In this document: one piece after another, positions 32,068-61,973 of the stretch
Layout: each line of letters starts with the position of its first letter
Position numbering within the stretch: the stretch's first letter is position 1
Source of the DNA: a virus
IMG/VR virus record: IMGVR_UViG_3300044620_001243
Length of the DNA: 64,000 nucleotides
Strand: one strand, 5' to 3'
The notes under the pieces: model-generated
What the model was told of the DNA's origin: nothing
What the model saw: only the letters and a program-made list of their open reading frames with translations
Databases searched by the model: none
Translations under genes and position numbers: made by a program

Positions 32068-33363
32068 ATGTCTAAATACAAACCCATAGGGATTACACCC
32101 AAAGAAAAAGCAGACCAGTTGTTAGAATCTGTTATGTTTAGTCTAAATAAACAATTTGACCCAAACACAGGTGAATATCAACCAATCCCAACCAACCCGC
32201 ATTATAAAGAATGCGCATTAGCAATTGTAAACGAAATCTTTGAGTTTATTAAAAAAGATGATTTAGATTCCGAAACGGCGTATTGGGCAAATCATCCTAT
32301 TTCTAATTTTTGGGTTGAAGTTGAACGTGAAATTAAAAAACAAATGAATTTGATTCAAATTTTAGAGAATTATTTTCAAAAAGGTTGGTTGATTAAACAA
32401 ACTCACCCAACTTTACCTCTGACAATTTGGAATTATTCCCAAACAACCCAATACGAGGGTAGGTGGGATGAAATAACCCTCATGTGTAGAGGTTTGGTTA
32501 CAGATGATGATGGAAATATTGTTGCCAGACCTTTCAAGAAGTTTTTCAATTTAGAAGAGGGAAAACACACACCAACCTCAGAATTCGAAGTATATGAAAA
32601 GATGGATGGTTCTTTGGGTATTTTCTTTTATTATCAGGAGCAACCCGTTTTTGCATCCAGAGGTTCTTTCACTTCCGACCAAGCCATCAAAGGAAGAACT
32701 CTTTTAGATAAGTATAATTGGCAAGGTGGAACTTACCCTGGCTACACTTACCTATTTGAGATTCTTTACCCGGAAAATCGGATAGTAGTAAATTACGGTG
32801 ATTTAGAAGAACTGGTTGTTTTGGGTGTGCTCAATACCCAAACTGGAGAAGAGTGTGATTTTTCAGAAATGAAAAACGAAGGATTCGTTCTAGTTAAAAA
32901 ATACGATGGAGTTAAAGACTATACCAAATTAAAGAGTATGATTTTTAACAATCAAGAAGGGTTTGTTGTAAAGTTTTCAAACGGAAATAGGGTAAAAATC
33001 AAAGGAGAAGAATACTTGCGTCTTCATAAGATTATGACTGAAGTTTCGACTAAATCTGTTTGGGAGATTTTATCCAATGGTGATAATATGGAAGAGATAC
33101 TCAGAGATGTTCCTGATGAATTTTTTGATAAGGTCAAGGAATATGAAACAGAACTTGTTTCTAAATTTGATGATATAAAGAATGAATACACTTGGATTTA
33201 TAAAGTTTTAGAAAGAAACGAGGAAATTTCAGAAAATAGAGCTATCTTTGCCCAATACGCTAAAAGATACAAACACCCATCCATTTTATTTGGTCTATTG
33301 GACGGTAAAAATATAGACCCTATGATTTGGAAAATAATACAACCCGAATATAAAAAACTATGA
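32068..33363 (+). CDS. ATP-dependent RNA ligase (nucleotidyltransferase motif I KxDGS)
   Basis: EVYEKMDGSLGIFF is the ligase adenylation motif I. Its size and its position next to the phosphatase and kinase genes suggest a T4 RnlA-like tRNA repair ligase. Confidence 0.55.
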   Translation: MSKYKPIGITPKEKADQLLESVMFSLNKQFDPNTGEYQPIPTNPHYKECALAIVNEIFEFIKKDDLDSETAYWANHPISNFWVEVEREIKKQMNLIQILENYFQKGWLIKQTHPTLPLTIWNYSQTTQYEGRWDEITLMCRGLVTDDDGNIVARPFKKFFNLEEGKHTPTSEFEVYEKMDGSLGIFFYYQEQPVFASRGSFTSDQAIKGRTLLDKYNWQGGTYPGYTYLFEILYPENRIVVNYGDLEELVVLGVLNTQTGEECDFSEMKNEGFVLVKKYDGVKDYTKLKSMIFNNQEGFVVKFSNGNRVKIKGEEYLRLHKIMTEVSTKSVWEILSNGDNMEEILRDVPDEFFDKVKEYETELVSKFDDIKNEYTWIYKVLERNEEISENRAIFAQYAKRYKHPSILFGLLDGKNIDPMIWKIIQPEYKKL

Positions 33364-33972: not shown

Positions 33973-34452
33973 TTGTGGAAAATACCAATGGAATCAAGTA
34001 ATTCAAAACAAAGACCTATGAAACAATACTTAGAGTGGCTTGAAAAACAAATTGACTTTTATTTAGAGGATAAAACGATGCAAAGAGAACATTGGGCTTT
34101 TTGTAAGGCATACGAGAAGTTCAAAAGCCTTGAAACGACCGCTGAATCAGAAGAACTCACACCCTACATTGAATACTACTCCAACGGAAATGTATCTATT
34201 AAAGGACAATTGAACTCCAAAGGACAAGAAGAAGGTCTTTGGGAGTGGTTCTATCCAAACGGAAACATCGAATGGAGAACCCCATACAAGGAGGGTAAGA
34301 TGGATGGAATTGAGGAGCGGTTTGATAAACAAGGAAACATCAAATGGAGAATCCCATACAAAGAGGGAAGGAGGATGGGATTGAGGAGGAATTTGATGAA
34401 CGAGGAAACATCACCGAAACCCATATTTGGAAAGATGGAGAACTAATTGAAT
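33973..34452 (+). CDS. YwqK/MORN-variant repeat protein (3' frameshift)
   Basis: Repeats YxNGNIEWRTPYKEGKxDGIEE. The reading frame breaks near 34367 relative to the paralogs (gagggaagg versus gagggtaagg). The other frame continues …KEGKEDGIEEEFDERGNITETHIWKDGELIE*. Confidence 0.45.
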
Positions 34453-34719
34453 AAACTAAACACTAAACCTATGAAAGACGGACAAACAATCGGCCAATGG
34501 CTGAACTGGGACTTTGAGGACAATGGTAACCTTAATGTTAAAGACAAGAATGGCAATCTCATCTACCAAGAATCTCCAAGTGGCTTTTGGGATAGGCGCG
34601 AATTTAATTCGAATGGCTTTGTCATCTACTATGAAAATTCAGATGGTGTCATTACTGACAACCGCACTCCCGAAATCATCGAACACAACGGACGCAAATA
34701 CCAATTAATTCCTAACTAA
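34447..34719 (+). CDS. hypothetical protein
   Basis: 90-aa ORF. Confidence 0.3.
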   Translation: MNKLNTKPMKDGQTIGQWLNWDFEDNGNLNVKDKNGNLIYQESPSGFWDRREFNSNGFVIYYENSDGVITDNRTPEIIEHNGRKYQLIPN

Positions 34720-34725: not shown

Positions 34726-35382
34726 ATGAAACTAATTTTAGAAAAAGACCAAAGATTATTTTTTACTAGTGATACCCACTACAATCACTCTAATATTTGT
34801 AGGGCAACTACAAAATGGGAGGACAGTTATGATGCCACTCGTGATTTTAAATCTTTAAGTCACATGAACGACAGTATTGTTCAGAATATTAATGATTTGG
34901 TAAAAGAAAATGATGTTTTAATCCACATGGGAGATTGGTCATGGGGTGGATTTGAATATATTGAAGAATTTCGAAAAAGGATTGTTTGTAAAAACGTTCA
35001 CTTAGTTTTTGGAAACCATGATGAACATATTAAAAAAAATACAGAAAACATTCAAGATATATTCACATCAACTCATGATTATTTACATTTGGATGTTAGA
35101 CAACCTTCCTCAACCAACAAAGGGTCAGTAAATAAGTTTGAATTTATTTGTATGCACTATCCTATTGCTAGTTGGGATGGTTTGTACCACGGTACAATTC
35201 ATTTACATGGTCACACACATCTAACTCCTAACTCTAGAATTTCACAAGGAAAAGCAATGGATGTTGGTGTAGATGGTAACGAGTATAAACCTTTACTTAT
35301 GCAAGAGATTATTGTTATCATGGGAAATAGAGAAATAAATCACCTTTGTTTACCAAAAGACCGTAACGAAAAAAGAATTTGA
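34726..35382 (+). CDS. metallophosphatase (polynucleotide 3'-phosphatase-like)
   Basis: Calcineurin-like motifs (DTHYNH, GDWSWGG, GNHDEH, GHTH). It is adjacent to and overlaps the kinase gene. Confidence 0.55.
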   Translation: MKLILEKDQRLFFTSDTHYNHSNICRATTKWEDSYDATRDFKSLSHMNDSIVQNINDLVKENDVLIHMGDWSWGGFEYIEEFRKRIVCKNVHLVFGNHDEHIKKNTENIQDIFTSTHDYLHLDVRQPSSTNKGSVNKFEFICMHYPIASWDGLYHGTIHLHGHTHLTPNSRISQGKAMDVGVDGNEYKPLLMQEIIVIMGNREINHLCLPKDRNEKRI

Positions 35383-37006: not shown

Positions 37007-38032
37007 ATGAAAAAACTAGAATTAACAAAAGACGAATTGGAAAAACTTTATTATCTCCCCCCAAAGGATGTTGAGAAAGAAACAGAATTCCAAATAACCT
37101 ATCGAATGGGTAGAAACTCATTAGTGTTGGAGTTGATAAAAAAGATAGATGAGGAACTCACACCCTACATTGAATACCACGACAACGGAAATGTGTGGAT
37201 TAAAGGACAAGAGAACTCCGTAGGACAACGAGAAGGCATTTGGGAGTATTTCTGGGTGAACGGAAACATCGAAAGGAGAATCCCTTTTAAAGAGGGTAAG
37301 GTGGACGGTATTCAGGAGGTTTTCTATCCAAACGGGAACATCGATTTTAGAACCCCATTCAAAGATGGTAATATGGATGGAATTCAGGAGTGGTTTGATG
37401 AACAAGGAAACATCACCAAAACCACTCTATGGAAAAATGGTGAAGTAATTGAAGAAACTGAACCCGAACTCACACCATACGTTGAATACCACGACAACGG
37501 AAATGTAGCGGTAAAAGGACAAAAGAACTCCGTAGGACAGGAAGAAGGTATTTGGGAGTTCTTCTATTCAAACGGAAATATCCAATATTCAAACGGAAAT
37601 ATCCAATGTAGAACCCCATACAAAGAGGGTAAGGCGGATGGTATTCAGGAGGTTTTCTATGAAAGCGGAAACATCCATTGGAGAACCCCATACAAAGAGG
37701 GTAAGAGGGATGGAATTGAGGAGTGGTTCTATGAAAACGGAAACATCGAATGGAGAACCCCATACAAGGAGGGTAAGATGGATGGAATTGAGGAGCGGTT
37801 TGATAAACAAGGAAACATCAAATGGAGAATCCCATACAAAGAGGGAAAACTGATTGAAGAAACTAAACCCAAACCACAACCTGACCCACAACTAATTGAT
37901 TTTATGGCAATGAGATACAGACATGACTTTGGGTTTTTGGATGAAAAACACAAAGAATCCATCAGAATAACAATGAAACAACTTTGGGAAGAAGTTGTTG
38001 GTCTTGGATTTTATAAACCAAAATCAAAATAA
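37007..38032 (+). CDS. YwqK/MORN-variant repeat protein
   Basis: At least eight repeats of NGNI(E/H)WRTPYKEGKxDGIxE. A 3' block is nucleotide-identical to 34141-34360. Confidence 0.6.
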   Translation: MKKLELTKDELEKLYYLPPKDVEKETEFQITYRMGRNSLVLELIKKIDEELTPYIEYHDNGNVWIKGQENSVGQREGIWEYFWVNGNIERRIPFKEGKVDGIQEVFYPNGNIDFRTPFKDGNMDGIQEWFDEQGNITKTTLWKNGEVIEETEPELTPYVEYHDNGNVAVKGQKNSVGQEEGIWEFFYSNGNIQYSNGNIQCRTPYKEGKADGIQEVFYESGNIHWRTPYKEGKRDGIEEWFYENGNIEWRTPYKEGKMDGIEERFDKQGNIKWRIPYKEGKLIEETKPKPQPDPQLIDFMAMRYRHDFGFLDEKHKESIRITMKQLWEEVVGLGFYKPKSK

Positions 38033-39550: not shown

Positions 39551-39577
39551 GGGAAGAATTGTCTTCCCTTTTTTTTG
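39551..39577 (+). terminator. rho-independent terminator
   Basis: GGGAAGA-ATTG-TCTTCCC hairpin followed by T9. Confidence 0.8.
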
Positions 39578-39613
39578 TTTGGTATTTTAAAATTTATTTC
39601 GTATATTTACACT
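39578..39613 (+). promoter_or_regulatory. Bacteroidetes-type promoter (TTTG-N20-TATATTTA; extended TTCGTATATTTACACTAT)
   Basis: Sits just after the terminator and just before ATG 39614. Confidence 0.5.
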
Positions 39614-40333
39614 ATGAAAACCGTATTCATCGGCGATATTCACGGACGTTCCATTTGGAAAGAAATTGTAGAACAGGAAAAACCTGATAGGGTTATTTTT
39701 GTCGGAGACTATTTCGACTCACTTGATATTCCAGGTATTGACCAAATTCATAATTTTAAAGAAATCATTCACCACAAAAAAACAAGTGGAATTGAGGTTG
39801 TACTGTTGGTAGGTAATCACGATTATCATTATATGGATATGGGTGAAACTTACAGTGGATTTCAACCTGCTCTAAAATTTGATATTGGGCAGTTACTCAA
39901 AGAAAATATGGAACATTTACAAATGGCACATTCATTTGATAATTTCCTTTGCACCCACGCTGGTGTATCTTCGGTGTTTATGAATGATAATTTTAGAGAT
40001 AGTTGGGATTGCGATAATTTAGTTGAAAAACTGAATGAAACATTTAAATATTCTCCATTCATTTTTAAGTTCAATGGTTTTAATCCATATGGGGATAATG
40101 AAACACAATCACCTATTTGGATTAGGTTGAATTCATTGAGAAGTTCAAATAACAAACGAGGTAAAGATGGAATTAAAAAGCAATTTATTCAAGTGTTTGG
40201 ACACACCCAAGTTAAAGAAATTGATTTGGTTGGAATGGCGAAATTTTTAGGTGGTAGATATATTATGATTGATGCTTTACCATCCCGTCAATACCTAATT
40301 TACAATGGAGAAATTAAAGTAGGAAAAGTGTAA
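39614..40333 (+). CDS. Ser/Thr protein phosphatase-family metallophosphoesterase
   Basis: VFIGDIHGR, FVGDYFD and GNHD. Start moved to the ATG at 39614, downstream of the promoter box. Confidence 0.7.
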   Translation: MKTVFIGDIHGRSIWKEIVEQEKPDRVIFVGDYFDSLDIPGIDQIHNFKEIIHHKKTSGIEVVLLVGNHDYHYMDMGETYSGFQPALKFDIGQLLKENMEHLQMAHSFDNFLCTHAGVSSVFMNDNFRDSWDCDNLVEKLNETFKYSPFIFKFNGFNPYGDNETQSPIWIRLNSLRSSNNKRGKDGIKKQFIQVFGHTQVKEIDLVGMAKFLGGRYIMIDALPSRQYLIYNGEIKVGKV

Positions 40334-41393
40334 GAAAATGAAAGATTTGATATACGTTAAAGACCCAAAACTAAGTGCCATACCGATTACAAAATTAATG
40401 AAATTAGTTTACGAGTTTATCCCAATAGAACAAAGAGAAGAATTTTTATCTGAATATAAAAAATTATATATGGAATCGTTACAAGACTTACAAAAATCAT
40501 ATGAATATGGACTTAATGAAAAAATACATAACGAATAAAAAAATAGTTATTATTGTTTCAGTAATAATTCTTCAAATACTCTTCGGTTTTGACCCCAAAT
40601 TCACATTTATAAATCTCATCTGGTTACTTTTTTAATATGAACAACAAATTAATATCCACATCAAATTATCTCTATTTGGTAGACGATTCAATAATAAACA
40701 ATGGTGATTATGTTTTTAACATTGAGGCTAAAATTGTGTGTGATTATAATTCTGATTTTAATGTAAACAAATCTTCTCTAAAAAAGATAATCGCCCATTT
40801 ACCATTGAAAGAAGATTCGTTTTATTTAAAAAAATTAAAATTACTTCCAAAATTAGATATGAACCTAATGCCAAATAAATTTATCTGTGAAACAGATTCA
40901 TCAGGTAAACCAGTAATTAAGGTTGACGAAAAAAATAGACCTATTTTGGTTGGAAAATACGAATATTGATGAAAAATTTATTATACGGCATTTTCTTAAT
41001 GGTTATTGCACAAATTTTAACTTTTTATCAAATACAAGGTCCACTTAAAATTGCGTTTTTTAAAAACAATTATTGGTTTGCCATTTTGATGGGTATTCCT
41101 TTATCGATTTTATATGTGGAGTCAGTTAAACAAATTGTAACATATTATGATGGTTTAGTGTGGCCAGGTAGATTAATTGGTTTTGGTGTTGGTGTGATTG
41201 TCTTTGGGATTTTTTCCTATTATGTGTTTAATGAAACATTAACCACAAAAACATTATTGTGTCTTTTACTGTCTTTAGGGATTATAGCTATTCAACTTTT
41301 TTGGAAATGATAGAATATTCAGATGTGATTGTCGATTTACATATGATATATAATTTATTTAATGAAAAATTTGGTTTTTTGAATTTTATTGCG

Positions 41394-41401
41394 TATATTT
41401 G
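41394..41401 (+). promoter_or_regulatory. -7 box TATATTTG
   Basis: 19 nt upstream of the lipoprotein minigene ATG. Confidence 0.4.
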
Positions 41402-41420
41402 AATCATAAAAAAAACACTT

Positions 41421-41579
41421 ATGAAAAACCTATTTATGTTTTTGGTTCTTTGTGGTCTAACAATGACCTCATGTTCCAATGGTGGTGAAAACTCGAGCGA
41501 GACTCCTGTTGAGGTACCACAAGATTCAGTATCCGTCGATACCGTCCCAGCGTATACGGATACTGTTCGTCCACTTTAA
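41421..41579 (+). CDS. small lipoprotein minigene (52 aa)
   Basis: MKNLFMFLVLCGLTMTSC… lipobox. Not in the ORF track because it is shorter than 60 aa. Preceded by a TATATTTG box. Confidence 0.35.
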   Translation: MKNLFMFLVLCGLTMTSCSNGGENSSETPVEVPQDSVSVDTVPAYTDTVRPL

Positions 41580-41587
41580 GTGGAATA

Positions 41588-41725
41588 GTCAGATGGCGAA
41601 ATGTAGCCGCTATTTGGGTAAAACAGTTTAACACGAGACGCGAACCTCACACAAAGCCTGATAATAACCAAATGAAAGTGCGAAGTACAGTAACACTTAT
41701 ACGGGTTCGACTCCCGTTCTGACTG
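41588..41725 (+). tRNA. diverged tRNA-like unit (acceptor AGTCAGA/TCTGACT, T-arm ACGGGTTCGACTCCCGT; non-canonical core)
   Basis: Same architecture as the 44.8-48.2 kb family but diverged in sequence. No canonical anticodon arm was found. Confidence 0.4.
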
Positions 41726-42300
41726 CGAGCCAGAGATATGGTAGTAATCGCACTGGTATATGAAGTAATTCAAATGTTGAATCCTAAGAATCTCAATCTT
41801 ACAACTATGGGTGGCTTAATTGTTGGTTCTACTCCTGAAATTACAGAGGAAATTGTCCTGAGAAAACAAGAGTACTCTGTAATCAGGTTAAATTTAAAAC
41901 AAAAATCATGATACAAATAATTTCAGTTTTATTGATTTACGTTCTTATCTACTTAATAGTTTCCGCTTGGATTAAGTTCTCAAATGAAAACACAATTAAA
42001 AACCTTTACAAAAAATAAAAATATGAAACAAAACAGTCACCTAATTCTTGCAATTAGTTTATTTTTACTTGGAATTTTAATTCAATGTGTATTACCACAG
42101 TTTACCGTTTTAGCGCATTTATCCTGTTTTATTTCGGGATGGTTTTTTGGTAACTATTTTTTCAATAAACAATATTCAGAATAAATTTAACAACAGGGAT
42201 GTATCCCCTCATGCTTATACCATGTAGAAAGGGTAATTGGTGACATATGAGTTCGAGTCTCATCTTCCCTACAATTCAAAAATCAAATTAAAAAAAAACC

Positions 42301-42711
42301 ATGAAAAAACTGTTCACATTTTTATTCTTAATGATTATTTCCATTGTTTCATATGGTCAAAAACCAATGGTTGGTTTTACGGAAGACGATATTAAAACAT
42401 ATAATAGAATTCAAAATGAAACGTTTTTTTGGGATAAAATTTATGAATCAAATATATGGTGTCTTTGGACAAAACACCAAACTCTTGATTTAATGAGCTT
42501 TTATGTTTTTGAATATGGTAAAAATAAAAACACCATGTTTGTAAACGCCACAAAAGATGATGAACTTGCTTTAATTATTTTAGATAAAATAAGAGAAGAT
42601 TGTGTTTTTTTAGGTAATGATAGGTACTTTAACAAAGACAATGGTTTGACAGTAAAATGTGAGTACAACCAAAGTGAGAAATCATTCATGTTTAAGTGGT
42701 GTTTTGAATAG
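42301..42711 (+). CDS. secreted hypothetical protein
   Basis: N-terminal signal peptide. 136 aa. Confidence 0.4.
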   Translation: MKKLFTFLFLMIISIVSYGQKPMVGFTEDDIKTYNRIQNETFFWDKIYESNIWCLWTKHQTLDLMSFYVFEYGKNKNTMFVNATKDDELALIILDKIREDCVFLGNDRYFNKDNGLTVKCEYNQSEKSFMFKWCFE

Positions 42712-42727
42712 TTTAAAAAAACATAAC

Positions 42728-43375
42728 ATGATTAATAATATTGAACTTATTAAACCCCTATTGAATTATGAAGAACACGGGGATTTTTACATGCTCTATG
42801 TTTTTAAAAGAAAAAAAGACCAACCCGAAGGAGAAAAAGATAACCATCAATCTGTTAGGACAATAAAAACATATTGTGTAGAAAGTATTGAATACTTAGA
42901 AAAAAGATTTGATGAGATAAAAGAATTGTGTGAATATTTTAAAGCGAGAGCATACATCCATGTTCAAAAACAAAACCATAAGGATGTCTCATTAGATATG
43001 ATGATTAGTTTGGCGGAAAAAATTAAAAATGGGCAACTGAATCAAAAGAATCTATTTGATTCGGTTGTTGGTCAAATAAAAACACACGAGAAAAGATGGG
43101 TCATTGACATTGATGGGTCTGAAACCCCATCTCCATTAATGATGGCAAATATTGAATATCATTGTAAACCAATAACCACACTTAAATATGATAAATCGGG
43201 GGTGATGAACGGTTATACTTCTGGCCCAAAAATTGAGGCCATTATCCCAACAAAAAACGGTCACCATATCATCACGAAAAAATTTGATGTGATGGAGTTT
43301 AAAAAATATTATCCCGATGTCGATATTCAAAAAAAGAATCCAACATTATTATATTATCCAAAAAGTTTAGGATAA
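42728..43375 (+). CDS. hypothetical protein
   Basis: ORF in the frame of the 42659..43375 track entry, with the start moved to ATG 42728 to avoid overlap. Confidence 0.35.
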   Translation: MINNIELIKPLLNYEEHGDFYMLYVFKRKKDQPEGEKDNHQSVRTIKTYCVESIEYLEKRFDEIKELCEYFKARAYIHVQKQNHKDVSLDMMISLAEKIKNGQLNQKNLFDSVVGQIKTHEKRWVIDIDGSETPSPLMMANIEYHCKPITTLKYDKSGVMNGYTSGPKIEAIIPTKNGHHIITKKFDVMEFKKYYPDVDIQKKNPTLLYYPKSLG

Positions 43376-43399
43376 TTTTTTATTTTCAATTTTTTTTCT

Positions 43400-43407
43400 T
43401 ACATTTG
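43400..43407 (+). promoter_or_regulatory. -7 box TACATTTG
   Basis: Upstream of ATG 43431. Confidence 0.4.
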
Positions 43408-43430
43408 TACTAACAAAAAAAAATACCAAC

Positions 43431-44411
43431 ATGAAAACAAAAAAAACTCAATTTGTAAATCTTTATGACGTATACAAAATAATTTTTAGTGATGATAAAA
43501 CTAAATATATTGATATGTTGTCAAGAATTTCAACTAAAAGTATTGAAAACGTTGAATTAATCAACTTACGAGAACATTTACTATCGTATGGTATTGGCGT
43601 TGATGTTTTAGATAAAATGTCAAATGTTGATTTATTGTTTCTTCATTCTGTTATGGATGGGATATTTCGTTATCACATGAAACTTGATAAGCAAGAAATT
43701 CAAACCGTAAGGAAGTTTATTGAATACAATGAGAGAGGTTTAATTGCAAATAATGATGTGTCCACATATAAAGATTTTAAAGAATTAGAAGATTCTGTTA
43801 GAATTGCAAATCTCAAAAGTCTTGATAAAGAAATGAGTAAAGAAATAAAAGAAATTTATTCTGACGATGAATGGTTTGTTTTAAGACCACTCACCACTTT
43901 ATCTGGTGAAAAATATGGATACGGTACTAAATGGTGCACAACCATGAATTCTGAATATTTTTTAAGATATTCACGAAATGGTATTTTGATTTACATAATC
44001 AATACAAAGACAGGAAAAAAAGTTGCATGTCATTCCTCTTTGGTAGAAGAAAATTCTACTTCTTTTTGGAATGAAGCAGATAATAGGGTGGACTCGATTG
44101 ACACAAATTTACCCGATTTTATTCTTGAAAAATTAAGAGTTGAACTTAAAAGTGGGGTAGACAATTTCAGTTTTCTTTCTGAAGAAAAACAAAAAATTGA
44201 ATTAGATAAAATTCATATAACCCTTAAAGAAAGTCATGAAATTGTAGAAAATATGGCAATGGATGAAATAATGGGGGAGGATGAGATGATTCCGACTCCA
44301 ATAAATCTGCATGAAAATATACGAAGGATGATAAATGGTGGTGGGGTGACGGGATTAAGAGGAAATGAATACGAACCCACGGAACAGAGGGAAGAAATTA
44401 GTGAAGAATAA
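43431..44411 (+). CDS. hypothetical protein
   Basis: 326-aa ORF preceded by a TACATTTG box. Confidence 0.4.
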   Translation: MKTKKTQFVNLYDVYKIIFSDDKTKYIDMLSRISTKSIENVELINLREHLLSYGIGVDVLDKMSNVDLLFLHSVMDGIFRYHMKLDKQEIQTVRKFIEYNERGLIANNDVSTYKDFKELEDSVRIANLKSLDKEMSKEIKEIYSDDEWFVLRPLTTLSGEKYGYGTKWCTTMNSEYFLRYSRNGILIYIINTKTGKKVACHSSLVEENSTSFWNEADNRVDSIDTNLPDFILEKLRVELKSGVDNFSFLSEEKQKIELDKIHITLKESHEIVENMAMDEIMGEDEMIPTPINLHENIRRMINGGGVTGLRGNEYEPTEQREEISEE

Positions 44412-44603
44412 GAAATACCACGGTTTATTGGATAAAATTATGCAACCAAAAGAATCAAAAACAAATACCCATTTTCAATTAAGTTTGATAAAATCTCTTT
44501 TAAGGATATTAGGATGTATTTATCTATTCTTTGGGTGTACAAGTATGTTTGTAATTATTTTCATATTTGCAGAAATTCTTGGAATTTTAGAAGAAATTTT
44601 GTA

Positions 44604-44627
44604 GTTTGAATTTTTTTTCGTATATTT
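44604..44627 (+). promoter_or_regulatory. promoter box TTTG…CGTATATTTG upstream of tRNA-Met
   Basis: An exact TAnnTTTG -7 consensus. Confidence 0.45.
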
Positions 44628-44653
44628 GTATTCTGAATATGAAAATAAACAAT

Positions 44654-44727
44654 AGCGGGGTGGTGGCAGATGGTAGCCCGCCAGGCTCATAACCTGGAGG
44701 TCGTAGGTTCGAGTCCTACCCCCGCAA
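44654..44727 (+). tRNA. tRNA-Met (CAT); 1:72 A:A mismatch, could be an initiator or a tRNA-Ile2-type
   Basis: Anticodon stem CCAGG/CCTGG with loop CTCATAA. T-arm GTAGG-TTCGAGT-CCTAC. Acceptor AGCGGGG/CCCCGCA. Promoter box TATATTTG at 44620. Confidence 0.8.
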
Positions 44728-44791
44728 CCGTATAGTTTTTGTTCTTTGACATCTTGGGAATTAAAAGTAAAAGTCGAGAGACTTAAAAATT

Positions 44792-44901
44792 AGTCAGGTG
44801 GCGGAATTGGTAGACGCAAGTGAGAATAGTAATTGCGCTGATGTAGCGGCAGATGCAGTAAGTTATTATTCATACAGGTTCGAGTCCTGTCCTGACTACC
44901 A
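44792..44901 (+). tRNA. tRNA-like unit 1 (Leu-type scaffold, 56-nt variable core, CCA encoded)
   Basis: 5' AGTCAGGTGGCGGAATTGGTAGACGC … ACAGGTTCGAGTCCTGTCCTGACTACCA 3'. Acceptor strands are complementary. No canonical anticodon arm was found. Confidence 0.5.
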
Positions 44902-44992
44902 AAGAAACAAGTAAAACGCAAACGCACAGTCCCTTGATGCATCAGGTGAGGCGCACACTGTATACTGGATGACCTCTGTTTCTTTTTTAATC
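44902..44992 (+). repeat. 91-nt spacer, identical copy at 45370-45460
   Basis: Exact duplicate following the two CCA-encoding units 1 and 3. It contains an AGAAACA…TGTTTCT helix followed by a T-run (terminator-like). Confidence 0.7.
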
Positions 44993-45101
44993 AGTCAGGT
45001 GGCGGAATTGGATAGACGCATTGAGGAATCTAAACTTGGTAGCATTTGTTAGATTTAATAGTAATCCTCCTTCCTTACAGGTTCGACTCCTGTCCTGACT
45101 A
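44993..45101 (+). tRNA. tRNA-like unit 2 (variable core 57 nt)
   Basis: Same conserved flanks. The core has a GAGGA…TCCTC stem enclosing 37 nt. Confidence 0.5.
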
Positions 45102-45267
45102 CGACAGTTAGCAGATAATACTTGGTAGTTCTTGTAACGTCTGACTATGCGTGAGGTGGTTTTATAACTTTCCACCAGCTGGTCCAAAACTAAAAGTTAA
45201 TACAGGTTTAATAACGGGGTGAAGGAAAGTCTAACTAACAAGTACTTCACTACCTACTGTAAAAATT

Positions 45268-45369
45268 AGTCAGGTGACGAAATTGGTAGACGTGCCACGA
45301 ATAAAACTAAGTGGTGGAGAAACAGCTTTCAGGCACTCCATACAGGTTCGAGTCCTGTCCTGACTACCA
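45268..45369 (+). tRNA. tRNA-like unit 3 (CCA encoded; compensatory D-stem A10:T25)
   Basis: D-stem ACG/CGT versus GCG/CGC in the other units. Followed by the same 91-nt spacer as unit 1. Confidence 0.5.
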
Positions 45370-45460
45370 AAGAAACAAGTAAAACGCAAACGCACAGTCC
45401 CTTGATGCATCAGGTGAGGCGCACACTGTATACTGGATGACCTCTGTTTCTTTTTTAATC

Positions 45461-45558
45461 AGTCAGGTGGCGGAATGGTAGACGCACTGGACAGGCGATG
45501 CATTTAAAACAGAAATAAGCCCAGTCGGTACTTACAGGTTCGAATCCTGTCCTGACTA
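45461..45558 (+). tRNA. tRNA-like unit 4
   Basis: Conserved flanks. The core has an ACTGG…CCAGT stem with a 30-nt loop. Confidence 0.5.
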
Positions 45559-45926
45559 CAAATCTTAGGAGTAATTAACCTAAGACTGAGAGGTTCGAAA
45601 CTCTCGATTGGCTATGGTGTAATGGGCACAGAGAAACGGAGTACGAAAGGGGTTACGGGAATTTTCCCGCAAACATCAGAAACGGGACTCAGGATTATGG
45701 TTCGAATCCATATTAGTCAACAAGCCGTCTTTTTTTCTTGTCCGCCGTGGACGTGGATTGTTGAGACGTAAAAGTAACAATCGATTGATTAGAGAACGGT
45801 AGGATACAGGTTCACTAGACGAAGGTAGAAGTTTTTTTTTGATAGATGGGTTTGAGTTCTTTATAACAACAAACCAACTATAATTCAGTAGGGACAAATG
45901 GGAGCGGCTTACTCCAGTCCCGAAAT

Positions 45927-46085
45927 AGTCAGGTGGCGGAATTGGTAGACGCTATGAAATCATGTTTTAAGATTGAACGGGTAGGCAGACGTAACATATA
46001 GGTAAAAGAGTGTTATCGCCGAATACACTTATAAGGGTCCTATGAAAAAACTTCAATCATACAGGTTCAAGTCCTGTCCTGACTA
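45927..46085 (+). tRNA. tRNA-like unit 5 (110-nt core)
   Basis: Conserved flanks with T-arm ACAGGTTCAAGTCCTGT. The very long core suggests an insertion or intron. Confidence 0.45.
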
Positions 46086-46328
46086 CACGTTCCGAAACAG
46101 ACAACGGATAGTTCCACTATGAACGATGAGAAACAGGGTGATGTCCTGTATTAGTTATCGCCTCCCGAATGCGGTCGGGATAGGTTGACCACCTAAACAT
46201 CAGCAATGTGAACGGTCTATTTCTAACTCACCTACGTTTGTAAGACAACATAGAAGTGACGAGACGGGAAACTCGTCGTGAGGACATCCAAGACACCTGT
46301 AAGTTGGATAAATTAGGGTGTTATTTTT

Positions 46329-46451
46329 AGTCAGGTGTGGGTAAAAATGCGCTAACTGGAAACCCACTGAAAGCGAAAGCAAAGTCGAGGTCTAAATGCG
46401 CACTATGGCCGAGGTAATGGCGAGATACAGGTTCAAGTCCTGTCCTGACTA
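46329..46451 (+). tRNA. tRNA-like unit 6 (altered D region)
   Basis: Acceptor AGTCAGG/CCTGACT and T-arm conserved. The D region is replaced by TGGG…CCCA. Confidence 0.4.
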
Positions 46452-46596
46452 CAAAGACAATGGTTTTCCCCATTCAACGGATGTCGACAATCCAGAATGG
46501 AATCGGAATTCAGCACCCTCAGCCGAGGCGCCTCGTAAAACTACGATTAAGCTGTTAAGATTGGAGCGAGACGGGTACTCCATCATTGTCTTATTT

Positions 46597-46668
46597 GGTC
46601 GGTTCATCTAGAGGTTAGGATACAAGATTTTCATTCTTGTCACATGGGTTCGATTCCCATACCGACTA
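46597..46668 (+). tRNA. tRNA-Glu (TTC)
   Basis: Clean cloverleaf. Acceptor GGTCGGT/ACCGACT, D GGAT-loop-ATCT, anticodon stem CAAGA/TCTTG with loop TTTTCAT, T-arm ATGGG-TTCGATT-CCCAT. 72 nt. Confidence 0.8.
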
Positions 46669-46833
46669 CCTTGGAGGTATAGGGGTAAACCCTTGAGGCG
46701 AAGTACAAGCCATAGTCACTGAACTTAAACTGACCTCCAACCAAATTAGAAGTGTCGCAATACGCGTTTCAATCTAATTGATAGACGTATCAATGAAGAT
46801 GTTCGAGGGTGAAAATCCCAAGCTTCTAATCCT

Positions 46834-46938
46834 CCATTCTTAGTGTTATGTGGTTAAAACACGTTAACTCTTACATCGCCTGATTAGCGCTAATCCGAAT
46901 GTAAGACGAGTAAGTTGGTTCGAATCCAACAGAATGGA
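46834..46938 (+). tRNA. tRNA-like gene with distinct acceptor (CCATTCT/AGAATGG), canonical D and T arms, and a 26-nt insertion inside a TCTTAC/GTAAGA helix (possible intron-containing tRNA)
   Basis: D-arm GTGT-loop-ACAC and T-arm GTTGG-TTCGAAT-CCAAC. The core is too long for a type I tRNA and the anticodon is unresolved. Confidence 0.45.
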
Positions 46939-47216
46939 CAATGAGTAAGAGATACTCAGAGTCTTTGGTCTAAGACTTAAACAATAGACTCGCAGAATGT
47001 CTACGGCGTGAGTGGGACATCATGGGAACAAAGAAGAGTCACACACCTTCTCCCAGTAGTGTTGACAGGTTTTTATGTGGTAAGACACTAATGAAAAAGA
47101 CTCGTTCTATGGGGTACTTATCTGGAGTATCAAACAAGTGTGAGTGATATGGTTCTCGAACAGACAGAGAAACCCGTTAAAATCTACCCGTCTGGAATCT
47201 CAGGATGGGGAAACAT

Positions 47217-47319
47217 AGTCAGGTGGCGGAGTGGGCTAACGCTAACTTGGAAGAGTCTGAGGAGTGGTAACCAAGTACCTATACTCTGATGACCGCAGGT
47301 TCGAATCCTGTCCTGACTA
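47217..47319 (+). tRNA. tRNA-like unit 7
   Basis: Conserved flanks (D-loop variant AGTGGGCTAA, T-stem GCAGG). The core has a CTTGG…CCAAG stem. Confidence 0.45.
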
Positions 47320-47337
47320 CAAAAATAAATTAAAATT

Positions 47338-47598
47338 ATGTTTATAGAAAGATTTTTTAACCCCTATGTGTCATCTCACGAAAGGGTATTATATGAGAAT
47401 AAAGAAGCAATTGAACATTGTTTGAAATATCATACATGGATTAGACATTATTCATTTGAAGGTGATGAATATATCAAAAATGTTAATGGTAAATTAGTTT
47501 GGAATGATGGTAGTAAAGTTGATAAAAGAAAATTACCTAAAAAAGGAAAAGGATGGGGCAGATATTCAAGTGAACTTTATAATTTGTGTTCTTTTTAA
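47338..47598 (+). CDS. small hypothetical protein embedded in tRNA island
   Basis: 86-aa ORF that exactly fills the gap between units 7 and 8. Confidence 0.35.
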   Translation: MFIERFFNPYVSSHERVLYENKEAIEHCLKYHTWIRHYSFEGDEYIKNVNGKLVWNDGSKVDKRKLPKKGKGWGRYSSELYNLCSF

Positions 47599-47605
47599 AT
47601 TAAAT

Positions 47606-47751
47606 AGTCAGGTGGCGGAATTGGTTAGACGCTGTAAAAGTAAGATATGGGAATTGTGCACTCGGTAAACCTACGCACAAGGCTTAGATAGTTGTGCAAC
47701 AGCGGAAAGTCTTACAAAACTATCTTACAGGTTCGAATCCTGTCCTGACTG
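47606..47751 (+). tRNA. tRNA-like unit 8 (95-nt core closed by 8-bp GTAAGATA/TATCTTAC helix; discriminator G)
   Basis: Conserved flanks. The self-contained closing helix suggests an inserted element or intron. Confidence 0.45.
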
Positions 47752-47906
47752 CAAAATTAAAGATATGTTTAGAACATTAAATTATATTTGGAAATTGTTT
47801 TGGAAAAGACCTAGTAGAAGAGTATTTTTTATATTTTTTAGAATGCTAAAAACGGAAATTAAGTGTTTAATGTTGACTGGATACTCAACAGATGAATTAC
47901 TAAATT

Positions 47907-48033
47907 AGTCAGGTGGCGGAATTGGTAGACGCACGATTTATTGTTTAACGATGTGGCTCAATGTCCTAATGGATGAGAGAAAATAAACAGAGAAATATAC
48001 CACATACAGGTTCGAATCCTGTCCTGACTACCA
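47907..48033 (+). tRNA. tRNA-like unit 9 (CCA encoded)
   Basis: Conserved flanks with a 73-nt core. Confidence 0.45.
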
Positions 48034-48085
48034 AGTTAACCCACTAAGACTAGAAACGGGTGACACCTCGGAAAGACGAGGACAT

Positions 48086-48170
48086 AGTCAGGTGGCGGAA
48101 TGGATAGACGCGGCCCTATCAGGGGTAGAGGCGAAAGAAACTCATACAGGTTCGAATCCTGTCCTGACTA
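48086..48170 (+). tRNA. tRNA-like unit 10 (85 nt, type-II length)
   Basis: Conserved flanks. The 34-nt core forms CCCT-ATC-AGGG and GAG…CTC minihairpins but no 7-nt anticodon loop. Confidence 0.45.
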
Positions 48171-48278
48171 CACAGTGTTGGCTTCAAGGACCTATTAGGG
48201 AAGTACACTTAAATAAAACAAGAACGGGGAAAACACCGAATCTGCAGATAACGGCGAAGTACCAACGAAAGGTGAAAC

Positions 48279-48352
48279 GACCTCATAGCTTAATTGGTAA
48301 AGCACCTGGCTTTTAACCAGGGGAGTCCAGAGTTCGAGTCTCGGTGGGGTCA
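48279..48352 (+). tRNA. tRNA-Lys (TTT)
   Basis: Acceptor GACCTCA/TGGGGTC, D GCTT-AATTGGTA-AAGC, anticodon stem CCTGG/CCAGG with loop CTTTTAA, T-loop TTCGAGT. Confidence 0.85.
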
Positions 48353-48553
48353 CAAAGGTTGATTGGGGAATGATGGTGACAAAGACTTGAGAGTTTATGC
48401 CGGTCGTTACCATCGGAGTTGGGAGGTATAAACCTAAGCAATGCCAATCGTAAAAGGAGTTGTCCACTCGACCATCTTCTCCTTTCCTTTTTTTTAAAAA
48501 AATTCTTAAAGACACATTTTGGTTTTATCATTTTACTTTTGTATATTTTACAT

Positions 48554-48820
48554 ATGAAAAACATAATAAACATAAGAAAAGTTGTATCTCAACTAACTCA
48601 AGAATATCTCTTTTTTAAAGAGGCATTTGAATCAGACGTGGATTCTGAAACTATGGAAAACACCAAAACGATTATGGATGATTTTGAAGATTTCGTTGAT
48701 GCATATTTGGATGAAAACGATGTTGATGATACGATAACAGACGATGAGATTTTAGATGATTGGATTGAAAAAAATGAGAGGTCAATGTATAAAAAGTTGA
48801 ATCGAAACGATATCAATTAA
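48554..48820 (+). CDS. small acidic hypothetical protein
   Basis: 88-aa ORF starting at ATG 48554, directly after a TATATTTT box. Confidence 0.35.
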   Translation: MKNIINIRKVVSQLTQEYLFFKEAFESDVDSETMENTKTIMDDFEDFVDAYLDENDVDDTITDDEILDDWIEKNERSMYKKLNRNDIN

Positions 48821-49001
48821 TCAATGGAAAAGAAGTGACCAAGTTTACTTTAATAAAATTTTTGAATTTTTTTGGAATTCTCATTTCTTTTAGTTATATT
48901 TGTATCATATTCGTTCTTTGAAATATTAAAAATGTAATTAATACCATTAACACTTATAAATACCCTTTCTATAACGATATAAATAATTTATAGATATTTA
49001 T

Positions 49002-50435
49002 ATGTGTGAATTTTTACCAAAAAGAATGGGTTATAAGTTAGAATTACTTAAAAGTGCGTTAAGTATTGATGGGGTTGAATCAATAGATAATGTGATAAAT
49101 TGGATTTTACTTCAAAATAAATCAACACATATTTCTGTAAATCGTGTTGATTTAATGTCACTTAAAAATTGGTTTTTTTCAAATGACATTCAAAACATAT
49201 ATCATAAAACTGGTAAATTTTTTTCTATTGATGGAATAACAGTTAAAACTAATTGGGGAACTATTAATGAATGGGACCAACCCATTATTAACCAACCTGA
49301 AATAGGGTTTTTAGGGTTTATCACACAAGAAATAAATGGGGTTTTACATTTCTTATTACAAGCTAAGATTGAACCAGGAAACGTAAATTATGTGCAATTA
49401 TCCCCAACTTTACAAGCCACACGTAGTAATTACACTCAAATTCATAGAGGAAATAAACCTTTTTTTCTTGAATATTTTTTAAATGTTAAATCAGAAAACA
49501 TTCTTTTTGACCAGTTACAATCTGAACAAGGTGCTCGTTTTTTGCGAAAACGAAACAGAAACATTATTATTAAAGTTGACGAACCAATAAAGCCACCTTC
49601 TAATTTTATGTGGTTAACTTTAGGTCAACTCAAACTATTAATGAAGATGTCTAATATCGTAAATATGGATACAAGAACAGTAATTTCTGGTATTTTATTT
49701 GACGGTCTTTCTCAATTTAATTATGAACAAATCATGAATGAAAAAGGAATAGTTCCTTCTGATTTGGGTGTTTCATTTTTTAAATCTGCAATTCTTAATG
49801 AAGGGTCTCTTCATAGTATTGAAGAGATAATTACATTTTTAACTAAACACAAAAGTTTTTTTGAAATTTTTATTGAACGAATACCACTTACTCATTTACG
49901 TAAATGGGAAGTCAAATCAGACGAGATTGTACGTCCTGATAATAAATATTTTAAAATTATTGGTGTAAATGTTGAAATTGATAATCGAGAAGTATCTAAT
50001 TGGGACCAACCGATGTTAATGCCATTGCAAGAAGGTATTTGTGCCATGATTGTTAAAAACATAAATGGTGTAATGCATTTTTTAATGTTAGCAAAATTAG
50101 AGTGTGGTAATCATGATATTATTGAATTTGCACCAACTATTCAACACACATCAACTGGCAATGATTTGTCATCTAATTGTCCACCATTTTTAAATTATGT
50201 GCTTGAATCCAATGAAAAACAAATAATTTACGACACTTATCAATCAGAAGAAGGTGGTAGATTTTATCGAGAACAAAATAGGTATCTAATTGTCCTCGCA
50301 GATGAAGATTTTAAAAACGAAGTGCCTGAAAATTATATTTGGATGACATTGTATCAAATTCAAGTTTTTTTAAAATTTAACAATTATATTAATATACAGG
50401 CACGTAGTCTTATCGCGGCTATTTCTTATTTATGA
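49002..50435 (+). CDS. NDP-hexose 2,3-dehydratase-like (two-domain) protein
   Basis: Internal duplication (…EIGFLGFITQEINGVLHFLLQAKIEPGN… and …EGICAMIVKNINGVMHFLMLAKLECGN…), typical of EvaA/TylX3-type 2,3-dehydratases. Confidence 0.55.
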   Translation: MCEFLPKRMGYKLELLKSALSIDGVESIDNVINWILLQNKSTHISVNRVDLMSLKNWFFSNDIQNIYHKTGKFFSIDGITVKTNWGTINEWDQPIINQPEIGFLGFITQEINGVLHFLLQAKIEPGNVNYVQLSPTLQATRSNYTQIHRGNKPFFLEYFLNVKSENILFDQLQSEQGARFLRKRNRNIIIKVDEPIKPPSNFMWLTLGQLKLLMKMSNIVNMDTRTVISGILFDGLSQFNYEQIMNEKGIVPSDLGVSFFKSAILNEGSLHSIEEIITFLTKHKSFFEIFIERIPLTHLRKWEVKSDEIVRPDNKYFKIIGVNVEIDNREVSNWDQPMLMPLQEGICAMIVKNINGVMHFLMLAKLECGNHDIIEFAPTIQHTSTGNDLSSNCPPFLNYVLESNEKQIIYDTYQSEEGGRFYREQNRYLIVLADEDFKNEVPENYIWMTLYQIQVFLKFNNYINIQARSLIAAISYL

Positions 50436-55621: not shown

Positions 55622-56194
55622 ATGGAAAAAAATCTAAATGAAGAGATTTCAAGAATAAAATCAATAATCAATTTTATGAATGAAAATGAATTGCCCAAAA
55701 ATTCTGGAGACTTAATAAGGATGTTACCTGAAAAGTTAAAAGAATTATTTTTCAATCAATGGAAAGCAAAACAAAACCCAAAATGGCACCCCGAAGGTAA
55801 CACATTGAAACATATTCTTGTTGTAATTAAAAGGGCTTATCATTATTATCCTGATGACCCCAATATGATTATGGCGGCGTTGTTTCATGATTTGGGGAAA
55901 ATTGATACATACAACATTAACCCAAAAACGGGGGAACCAACTGCGTATGGTCATGAGAACAAGTCAGTGCAATATGTGGAAGAATTCAAAGATTGGATTC
56001 AGAGTTTTGAGGGAACGAACGTGGAAGAGATTAAATATTTGGTTAAAAACCATATGAAGGTAAAACCATCCACATGGGACTCAATGAGGGATATTAAGAA
56101 AGAACCGATACAATCACACCCCGCATTTGATAAATTAATGGGTTTTACAAGTAAATTGGATGGTGGGGGGATTAATTTGGAAAAAAATATTTAA
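55622..56194 (+). CDS. HD-domain phosphohydrolase (CCA-enzyme C-terminal-domain-like 2',3'-cyclic phosphodiesterase)
   Basis: KWHPEGNTLKH…LFHDLGK matches the KWHPE…H…HDxGK pattern of the bacterial CCA-adding enzyme HD domain. Confidence 0.5.
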   Translation: MEKNLNEEISRIKSIINFMNENELPKNSGDLIRMLPEKLKELFFNQWKAKQNPKWHPEGNTLKHILVVIKRAYHYYPDDPNMIMAALFHDLGKIDTYNINPKTGEPTAYGHENKSVQYVEEFKDWIQSFEGTNVEEIKYLVKNHMKVKPSTWDSMRDIKKEPIQSHPAFDKLMGFTSKLDGGGINLEKNI

Positions 56195-56830: not shown

Positions 56831-57448
56831 ATGCAAAAAGTTATTTTCTTGGATATTGATGGGGTAATGAACTCACATATTTTCTATGAACAAAGGCATA
56901 GAAAAAGATGGTTGAAATGGAGAACTTATTATTTTTTGATTAGAAGATTTTTGGGGATTAAATCCAAATCCGTGAGTCTTGCTAACCACAAAACACCCAA
57001 ATCCCATTGCACATACCAACACCAATTTAAAAGATTAAAAGAAGAGACTTGTCAGCAAAAATGGAAATGGCTTGCTAATTTCTGCAACGAGACTGGAACT
57101 AAAATTTGTGTATCATCTGTGTGGAGATTTCATTTTGGAAATGAAGAATCGGTTATACCCCTGTGGTGGGAACGAGCACTGATTGATTTGGGTTTCAACG
57201 AAGGAACATTTGTTGGTATCACCGACAGATTGGGAATGAGAGGAGAAGAAATCAAGGATTGGCTTCAAAAAAATCAGGAAGTTCAGGAATATGCAATTTT
57301 AGATGATGACTCTGATATGCTACCTGAACAGATGGATAAATTTTATCATTGTGATGGATATTTTGGTCTTTCTCCCAATCACTTATATCGTATCCAAAGA
57401 GCCTTCTCGGGTAAAAGTAAATATGGACATTTGAATAAAACCGTATAA
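56831..57448 (+). CDS. HAD-like hydrolase
   Basis: VIFLDIDGVMN (motif I) and ILDDDSD (motif IV-like). Confidence 0.45.
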   Translation: MQKVIFLDIDGVMNSHIFYEQRHRKRWLKWRTYYFLIRRFLGIKSKSVSLANHKTPKSHCTYQHQFKRLKEETCQQKWKWLANFCNETGTKICVSSVWRFHFGNEESVIPLWWERALIDLGFNEGTFVGITDRLGMRGEEIKDWLQKNQEVQEYAILDDDSDMLPEQMDKFYHCDGYFGLSPNHLYRIQRAFSGKSKYGHLNKTV

Positions 57449-58595: not shown

Positions 58596-58598
58596 ACT

Positions 58599-61222: not shown

Positions 61223-61412
61223 TCGAATCCTGACTGCAAATCAAATCAACTAAAAACAAAACAAATGAAAAATAAGTTAAAAACAATTTGGCATGATTTT
61301 TGGACTGACCCCCTATACTACATTGTAATTATGTCGTATATTGGTTTGCTTTTAATTATGTTAATAGTTAGTGTGGCTTGGTTTATCCAACCTTTAATAA
61401 AATAACAAAACA

Positions 61413-61501
61413 GTCAGGTGGTGGAATTGGTTAGACCGTCCCCTCCCTTAAGTGGAAGGGGGAGACCGAAAGGTATACAGGTTCGAATCCTGTCCTGACT
61501 A
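61413..61501 (+). tRNA. tRNA-like unit a (89 nt; D-stem shifted with compensatory changes)
   Basis: GGTGG/CCGT D-arm variant. The core folds best as a CTCCCTT/AAGGGGG helix with an AAGTGG loop rather than as an anticodon arm. An alternative reading as tRNA-Leu (CUUAAGU loop) would need a mismatch. Confidence 0.45.
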
Positions 61502-61685
61502 CTAAAAATTAAAGAATTATGAAAATAAAAGTACACTTATTAAGTCAATCTAAACCGATTGAATATGAGGATGTGAAAAACGCATACACAAAAAGCGGTT
61601 TGTATTGTGTCTATCTAAAAAACAATCAAGTACACAAATACCCTTTGTGTAATGTATTTAGAATTGAAGAAGATTATTAAAACAT

Positions 61686-61768: not shown

Positions 61769-61784
61769 CTAAAAATTAAAGAAT

Positions 61785-61967: not shown

Positions 61968-61973
61968 TCAAAC

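Follow-up and report, generated by a model that had tools for sequence, protein, structure and literature searches.

The virus record IMGVR_UViG_3300044620_001243 from IMG/VR supplied a 64,000-nucleotide (nt) stretch of DNA, here called the window, which is A+T-rich and carries nearly all of its genes on the + strand. A non-coding island of raised G+C extends from 44654 to about 48350, and within it a 91-nt spacer, which we call S, occurs twice between tRNA-like units. The island contains tRNA-Met (44654-44729, + strand, the first gene of the array), tRNA-Glu and tRNA-Lys together with ten units built on one scaffold, AGTCAGG-TG-GCGGAATTGGTAGACGC ... ACAGGTTCGAATCCTGT-CCTGACT-A. More units are found outside the island, one diverged copy at 41586-41727 and others at 61412-63027. 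Promoter motifs of the Bacteroidota type (TTTG...TAnnTTTG) match 15 times in the window against 5.5 expected; one of them (TTTG...TATATTTG, 44598-44628, + strand) stands before the array and the next is at 48871, with none inside the array between 44628 and 48871. S probably lies in a long, single transcription unit of tRNAs and tRNA-Leu-derived units.

The phage's own tRNA-Leu(UAA), at 61412-61502, has the same scaffold. The scaffold halves (5', approximately 26 nt; 3', approximately 29 nt) are near-identical among units, and between the D-arm and the T-arm each unit has 30-130 nt of unrelated, structured sequence (the core) and no anticodon arm. The window and related loci together gave 233 distinct units, of which 217 have a paired D-stem, compared with 176 in a partner-shuffled control; the stem covaries (GCG/CGC, GTG/CAC, CCC/GGG, ACG/CGT and others). 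Unconstrained folding recovered the acceptor stem in 15/15 units and both acceptor and T arm in 11/15. Standard tRNA finders overlook approximately 80% of the units: ARAGORN made a call of any kind in only 46 of the 233, and Leu(TAA) was the sole recurrent sensible call. Within the window, the ARAGORN 'tRNA-Pro(agg)' at 48086-48171 (86 nt) is a scaffold unit without a proper anticodon loop, and the 'tRNA-Gly(acc)' at 61686-61769 (84 nt) appears equally doubtful. We rejected intron-containing tRNAs as an explanation of the units, given that the 'introns' called by ARAGORN -i fall at inconsistent positions (29-41) and come with odd anticodons. The 3' scaffold motif is present in more than 120 viral contigs, and the window plus the first 127 viral loci contain 176 distinct units, whose cores form 148 clusters. 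These cores match other units only, so that capture from phage or host sequence, as in CRISPR, was also rejected. For core c4 no match was found in an independent IMG/VR contig.

The repeated junction

Direct comparison confirmed what had been claimed in the original prediction, namely that 44902-44992 and 45370-45460 are identical base for base, that both are preceded by ...CCTGACTACCA, and that both come after tRNA-like units that encode CCA. The window holds no third copy of the 91-nt spacer at three or fewer mismatches, and 100 dinucleotide-preserving shuffles yielded 0 matches to it. The exact identity is longer than the spacer, with an extra 31 nt on the left and 16 nt on the right, giving 138 nt in direct orientation at a start-to-start distance of 468 (44871-45008 = 45339-45476, + strand). 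Each copy opens with the 3' part of a tRNA-Leu-like unit (T-arm, 3' acceptor strand, discriminator and encoded CCA), continues through the spacer, and closes with 16 nt from the start of the following unit, namely its acceptor strand and the beginning of its D-arm. In copy A (44871-45008) the units joined in this way are U2, whose part ends in ACCA, and U3; in copy B (45339-45476) they are U4 and U5.

The units that flank the two junctions, all on the + strand, have different cores. U2 (44792-44901) holds the non-tRNA core c2 on the scaffold AGTCAGG TG GCG..CGC ... ACAGGTTCGAGTCCTGT CCTGACT A CCA and has no ARAGORN call, and U3 (44993-45101) holds core c3, replaced on this scaffold by a different core in the related contigs L133 and L176. 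Next comes E2 (45102-45267), a conserved non-coding element between U3 and U4 that is 99-100% identical in L133, L176 and L177. U4 (45268-45369) has core c4, a compensated D-stem (ACG/CGT) and an encoded CCA, and U5 (45461-45558) has core c5, which contig L122 carries upstream of S. The remaining 330 nt of each 468-nt period are unrelated between the two periods; cores 2 and 4 align no better than shuffles, and the sequences 3' of U3 and 3' of U5 (E2 versus E3) are likewise at shuffle level.

These data bear on the duplication of a tRNA-like unit plus spacer with later swapping or divergence of the cores, as had been proposed. A plain tandem duplication with a period of 468 would account for two direct copies at that distance and for the fact that both copies in the window are preceded by the minority T-loop variant TTCGAGT. 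However, only 138 of 468 nt are similar, and neutral divergence could not bring the cores to shuffle level and leave 138 nt with 0 substitutions. The block that is actually duplicated is the junction (3' scaffold half, S, 5' scaffold half), and the cores lack residual similarity and are therefore different cassettes, not diverged ones. Furthermore, each context occurs alone in a near-identical genome (L133 or L176), and the T-loop before copy B reads TTCAAGT in L176 and L177, in contrast to TTCGAGT in the window (as before copy A). Given TTCAAGT at copy B in L177, the shared variant is not ancestral, which leaves tandem duplication very unlikely. The TTCGAGT before copy B in the window may be a substitution or a gene conversion from copy A, and it is through this change that the identity extends to 138 nt.

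Predicted structure of the spacer

To find relatives of S we searched with three exact 23-24-mers, which gave 9 viral contigs and 10 metagenome contigs. Divergent homologues were not found by nhmmer alone and needed a covariance model and gapped patterns on invariant blocks; the model matched L095 (= L181), and the patterns L182, L183, L184 and L189. Comparison of these sequences gives good support to a reading of the spacer as a small folded RNA of approximately 85 nt, from one strand of helix P1 to the other, with a predicted pseudoknot. Copy 1 occupies 44901-44985 (+ strand; covariance model match of 114.9 bits and no Rfam match), and the identical copy 2 occupies 45369-45453 (+ strand). 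The AGAAACA...TGTTTCT helix described in the original prediction is present, although its actual length is 9 base pairs (bp): P1, AAAGAAACA/TGTTTCTTT, is formed by 44901-44909 and 44977-44985 and begins with the A of the encoded CCA. The conserved junction AGUAAAACGCAAACGC (44910-44925) leads to the 5-bp helix P2a (44926-44930/44957-44961), which encloses the P2b hairpin with its UGCA tetraloop (44932-46). The conserved AUACUGGAUGA follows at 44962-44972. Across P2a, GAGG at 44948-44951 would pair with the downstream CCUC at 44973-44976 to form the pseudoknot P3, the equivalent of which in L095 is UAGG/CUUA.

The 11 distinct S sequences, which come from several phage lineages, keep pairing in 94.2% of pair cells, and 16 of the 22 pairs show changes on both sides. 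These measures were not attained by any of 500 shuffles, and slid registers were only 38-57% paired. P1 exists in at least five different sequences across lineages with pairing kept, and P2a is paired in all of its variants (ACAGU/ACUGU, ACGGG/CCCGU, GUAGA/UCUAC, ACAAC/GUUGU and CAACU/GGUUG). Even among near-identical copies of the window type, the three single-base variants within helices (L128, L129 and L130) are wobble-compatible, and a variant in L136 falls in the P2b loop. The unpaired positions behave differently: approximately 25 unpaired nt are invariant, in the blocks GUAAAACGCAAAC, CAC and ACUGGAUGA. In the alignment of homologues the unpaired nGUAAAACGCAAACnn lies between P1 and P2a, with CAC and A-ACUGGAUGA as further unpaired blocks. 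Compensatory helix changes together with conserved unpaired nucleotides, the generic signs of a structured non-coding RNA, are hence both found in S. On these alignments P1 and P2a of the predicted structure are strongly supported and P2b moderately so; the pseudoknot has thin support, from one double change and a single wobble.

Several observations weigh against this structure and the reading built on it. Most double-sided changes come from just five to six divergent lineages, P3 shows only one such change, and in the L132/L183 type part of P2b is broken. The single-sequence predicted fold of S is not unusually stable (z = 0.19), and neither P2a nor the pseudoknot is recovered in the single-sequence minimum free energy structure.

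S had no match in Rfam 15 at E values up to 10 for a 101-nt region or up to 1 for 40000-50000, in a search that included the hammerhead, hairpin, hatchet, pistol, twister, HDV, fluoride and other riboswitch families. GenBank phages contain no copy of S and no relative of the island except an ordinary tRNA-Met and one small open reading frame (ORF), and beyond tRNA-Met the only phage to match the island is a 642-kb uncultured one. Relative to Rfam 15 and GenBank phages the motif is undescribed; a catalogue of 10,006 viral candidate RNAs published in 2023 (PMC10690425) lies outside this comparison. S itself is not recognised as a tRNA, with no ARAGORN or Rfam tRNA call overlapping 44902-44992 or 45370-45460, and no complementarity of 12 nt or more that could mark an antisense target was found in the window. 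Two further candidates were discarded. S contains an 11-codon ATG...TGA frame, but each of the two point variants at GAGGCGCAC is non-synonymous and S is not crossed by any + strand ORF of 50 amino acids (aa) or more, which speaks against a peptide. Resemblances to the hammerhead, the hairpin ribozyme and the fluoride riboswitch, noted by eye, involve bases that are not conserved or are out of register.

Genomic contexts and possible function

S is 98-100% identical in the relatives matched by k-mers, whereas the flanking unit cores are completely different and the tRNA-Lys, tRNA-Met and inter-unit elements of the same relatives are only 77-90% identical to the window. Each of these genomes has one copy, and across them S has at least nine different upstream and approximately ten different downstream partners. 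It is found between tRNA-like units and also behind ORFs, in front of a terminator and, in one case, 5' of a small ORF. In L132, which shares only 71 nt with the window, S lies outside any tRNA array at the end of an ORF, and the closing helix is TATTTATCA/TGATAAATA in place of AAAGAAACA/TGTTTCTTT. In L182 it directly follows a Bacteroidota-type promoter motif upstream of tRNA genes, and in L184 it lies approximately 70 nt 5' of an ORF start. The tRNA that comes after S in L182 (5126-5370), a separate phage lineage, has the anticodon CUA and is a candidate amber suppressor. The related contigs are from freshwater lakes and often binned with Bacteroidota, and several of the viral contigs are 130-430 kb long. 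No protein gene is common to all S-bearing loci, and the sole 'shared ORFs' are spurious frames across S itself. The original prediction had stated that its expansion model would suffer if related genomes had the spacers in unrelated contexts. Relatives do carry the spacer in at least nine unrelated unit contexts and in non-tRNA contexts, and a simple local duplication-divergence model is weakened for that reason.

An encoded CCA is strongly associated with S. It is found in 7 of 9 distinct contexts upstream of S, compared with 7 of 280 other units (Fisher p = 4e-9), and a genuine tRNA-Tyr upstream of S in L123 also ends in CCA. It is not present upstream of S in L127, L131, L132, L182, L183 and L184. 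The CCA before S may be functional or may only be carried along with the junction module.

The closing helix had been described as terminator-like, and an intrinsic terminator or attenuator, in which P1 and a U-run stop or throttle transcription after the CCA-encoding unit, has some basis in the window type of S: more U residues come after P1 (AAAGAAACA/UGUUUCUUU), relatives have runs of T6 to T11, and a P1 stabilised by a ligand or protein beside a U-run could in principle attenuate. The likeness ends with the window type, given that L123, L132, L095 and L184 have no U-tract 3' of P1. The stem itself is AU-rich (2 of 9 pairs are G-C) and encloses a 'loop' of 67 structured nt, and a simple terminator scan gives no call. 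Nor is S at the end of an operon: downstream of it come the genuine tRNA-Glu and tRNA-Lys as well as nine more units, for which no promoter could be recognised. In L132 a separate canonical terminator stands right after S, and the position in L182, right after a promoter motif and before tRNA genes, is unlike that of a terminator. A terminator would also not need the invariant unpaired blocks or the pseudoknot. We therefore regard a terminator function as improbable.

A small mobile DNA element, MITE-like (a miniature inverted-repeat transposable element) or homing, that inserts beside tRNA 3' ends and into hairpins could explain a nearly identical core in otherwise unrelated contigs such as L132, and the presence of S in several non-homologous contexts and twice in this genome. 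No target-site duplication or duplicated flank was seen in the S contexts inspected, relatives have a single copy, and no protein gene is shared near S. P1, which would have to be the terminal inverted repeat, varies by lineage with pairing kept, and P2a covaries. In the alignment this pattern reads as a signature of selection on RNA structure and not of a transposase substrate, which makes mobility highly improbable.

Invariant unpaired nucleotides among freely covarying helices are a pattern typical of ribozymes and aptamers. S could accordingly be imagined as a self-cleaving ribozyme that would define the upstream ...CCA 3' end, or as a cis-acting, riboswitch-like aptamer. It resembles small ribozymes and riboswitch aptamers in its size, its compact pseudoknotted fold, and its approximately 25 invariant unpaired, largely junctional nt between helices that are all free to covary. 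The CCA encoded immediately 5' of P1 and the position approximately 70 nt upstream of an ORF start in L184 would fit, and the phage encodes genes for healing and sealing RNA ends (an Rnl1-type ligase, a HAD_SAK_2 domain, three metallophosphoesterases and an HD protein). However, no Rfam 15 family matches, the hammerhead-like CUGGAUGA carries an extra G, and the hairpin-ribozyme-like AGAAACA falls in P1 and is not conserved in other lineages. A ribozyme that defines the CCA end is at odds with the six contigs listed above that have no CCA before S, and a riboswitch is at odds with the lack of a coherent downstream gene set, given that S is not in the 5' untranslated region of functionally coherent genes. 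A catalytic or ligand-sensing role is in our view unlikely. The extended version, in which S would be a new RNA of this kind (for example a ribozyme that cuts at its own 5' edge to create the upstream CCA end) within an array that displays hypervariable cores on a tRNA-Leu scaffold, is also unlikely. If true, the array would be a phage system that expresses and rapidly exchanges a small-RNA library, possibly as decoys against host defences that target tRNAs.

We consider it probable that S is a small structured RNA gene in the array transcript of a large freshwater Bacteroidota phage, that it is released from a tRNA-like precursor, and that its two copies arose through recombination between haplotypes. 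The comparisons show S as a conserved, predicted structured RNA element in the same sense orientation as its neighbours, which are themselves tRNA-like RNAs. It is bounded directly by these units within one predicted transcription unit, which is the layout of a tRNA-punctuated transcript, and the most likely reading is that S would be excised from this polycistronic transcript. S lies directly between two units, its 5' side against the 3' end of the upstream unit and its 3' side against the 5' end of the downstream one, and may therefore be released by their maturation enzymes: cleavage by RNase P would take place at the downstream unit, and the upstream CCA-encoding unit would be the site of 3'-end processing. 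Once free, S would be a stable RNA that works through its invariant unpaired core (GUAAAACGCAAAC, CAC and ACUGGAUGA), with a protein, an RNA or a small ligand as partner. Two points count against such an excision. The proposed cuts by RNase P and 3'-end processing are deduced from position only, and an encoded CCA could inhibit RNase Z, as it does in bacteria where this has been studied, so that S could stay attached to the upstream unit. S is small enough for direct biochemistry, including assays of self-cleavage, ligand binding and processing by RNase P and RNase Z.

Remodelling of the array

Near-identical genomes from other samples were found via the small ORF at 47338-47598. One of them, L175, is 100% identical to the window over 10,261 nt and may represent the same strain or assembly. 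L177, from a different Joint Genome Institute (JGI) sample, is 99.6% identical with 15 mismatches in 4 kb, and has both S copies in the order c2-S-c3-E2-c4-S-c5-E3. L176 and L133 have one copy each. Overall identity between L176 and the window is 97.9-99.4%, and it is complete in the aligned flanks of a swap in which one unrelated core of approximately 125 nt takes the place of c2-3' scaffold-S-5' scaffold-c3; its breakpoints fall exactly at the scaffold/core borders (end of the D-arm and start of the T-arm), and only the second S copy remains. L133 has only the first copy, in the order S, unit with another core, E2 (99% identical) and a unit joined straight to window position 46426, and is without the second S, E3, U6, E4 and core c7. 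L177 has in addition lost 338 bp (E4 and the 5' part of U7) by a deletion with both endpoints inside the 29-nt scaffold repeat. In more distant relatives the same inter-unit modules are found in a different order.

Because L177 shows the same order, the two-copy state is real. An assembly artefact of repeats or mixed strains might be suspected in such a repeat-rich array, given that assemblies often break at its start (L168-L170) and that L175 may be the window's own assembly, which leaves L177 as the independent support for two copies. However, L177 comes from another sample, differs by 15 mismatches over 4 kb and still has both copies in the same order, and an artefact is extremely unlikely. 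L168-L170 are contigs with the 326-aa gene found at 43431-44411 of the window, and the three independent assemblies end within 300 nt of the array start; the array region is therefore likely to be under-represented or fragmented in metagenome assemblies.

Breakpoints in scaffold halves and inter-unit elements show the arrays to be mosaics, to all appearances rearranged by homologous recombination at the scaffold halves and at conserved inter-unit elements, and it is because the arrays are mosaics that S is present twice. The view that the locus gives a glimpse of how the array changes was borne out by the haplotypes L133, L176 and L177. From these haplotypes, homologous recombination between arrays, with cassettes exchanged at scaffold halves, appears to be the best explanation of the duplication and replaces the duplication-divergence model as the likely account. 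Recombination at scaffold halves and in E2-like elements would swap, delete and add blocks, and one ordinary crossover in E2 between an L133-like array (S first) and an L176-like array (S second) would produce the two-copy array. Strong conservation of S and the scaffold, possibly with gene conversion between copies, would account for the 138-nt identity. The reverse path, from a two-copy ancestor with the one-copy arrays as deletion products, could also be drawn and weighs against this direction of change; the duplication itself is ordinary recombination between repeats.

Cores are wholly different between genomes that are 99% identical in their flanks. Core replacement that is much faster than flanking mutation points to selection for diversity in what would be a tRNA-scaffolded RNA family. 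What had looked like a spacer turns out to be a structured RNA family in several large freshwater phage lineages, mostly between tRNA-like genes, and its duplication, read beside one-copy sister haplotypes, reveals array evolution through swap, deletion and addition at scaffold halves.

Relation to known systems

In phage T4, RNA C and RNA D lie in the tRNA cluster and are matured from the same precursors as the tRNAs. These small stable RNAs are encoded with the phage tRNAs, and their function is still unknown (PMC9697503). S is instead pseudoknotted, flanked by non-decoding tRNA-like units and found in Bacteroidota phages; no relation is evident and the sequences were not compared. GOLLD and ROOL are large RNAs that often lie near tRNAs in prophages (PMC5737381). 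Both are Rfam families of ornate RNAs of 500-800 nt, whereas S is approximately 85 nt and matches neither. In Escherichia coli 3'ETS-leuZ and in the TMERs of the herpesvirus MHV68, which combine tRNA-like structures with hairpins, tRNA or tRNA-like structures recruit RNase P or RNase Z and release a neighbouring RNA. A neighbouring RNA is likewise released through a tRNA-like structure in MALAT1-mascRNA (PMC8457004). The principle proposed for S is the same, although S has tRNA-like structures on both sides and an unrelated sequence and fold, and its processing is inferred. S belongs to none of these families.

The array resembles integron cassettes, CRISPR arrays and modular phage mosaicism in having variable inserts between short conserved sequences, such that close genomes differ by whole cassettes. 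Its boundaries, in contrast, are tRNA-Leu-like scaffold halves, general homologous recombination explains the exchange, and no integrase or Cas genes were seen. The huge Lak megaphages of Bacteroidota have 'enigmatic introns' in tRNAs and highly expressed intergenic regions (PMC6784885). The over-long tRNA-like genes are alike, but an intron model fails for the units described here. The novelty of this locus lies in the S RNA motif and in how clearly cassette exchange can be seen within a tRNA-scaffold array.

Further features of the window

Candidate genes for RNA-end processing and repair encode a T4 Rnl1-type RNA ligase (32068-33363), a HAD 'Swiss army knife' RNA repair domain (56831-57448), three calcineurin-like phosphoesterases (27873-28574, 34726-35382 and 39575-40333) and an HD-domain protein (55622-56194). 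With these genes the phage is equipped for handling RNA ends, and the cluster suggests pressure from host defences that cleave tRNAs; it is context and not evidence of a link to S.

Long non-coding inter-unit elements are found throughout the array (E3, 45562-45926; E4, 46088-46328; E5/E6, 46454-46596 and 46671-47216; E7, 48173-48278) and are 83-100% conserved in relatives. E3-E7 have no Rfam match. Some elements contain extra T-arm-like motifs (for example GGTTCGAATCC at 45698 and 46918) and other acceptor stems, and they may be further large tRNA-like or novel RNAs. A 21-nt hairpin (CCCGCAAACATCAGAAACGGG and variants) recurs in three of the inter-unit elements, at 45666-45686, 46190-46210 and 48040-48060. 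The ORF at 47338-47598 within the array encodes 86 aa; the exact protein occurs in 59 blocks of a public collection and has no Pfam match, and its DNA is approximately 75% identical to the 642-kb phage LR756502. Genes of the TnpB/IS605 OrfB type lie beside or within the arrays of close relatives (L173, 199-1407; L179, 3761-5197) and are absent at that place in the window.

At 13894-15225, two long ORFs (443 aa on the + strand and 410 aa on the - strand) overlap almost completely in a 1-kb stretch with a G+C content of 0.44 compared with approximately 0.30. Several paralogous genes for MORN-repeat proteins with repeated DNA are found at 34273-34718, 37349-37875 and 57707-58602, and these match the end of contig L126.

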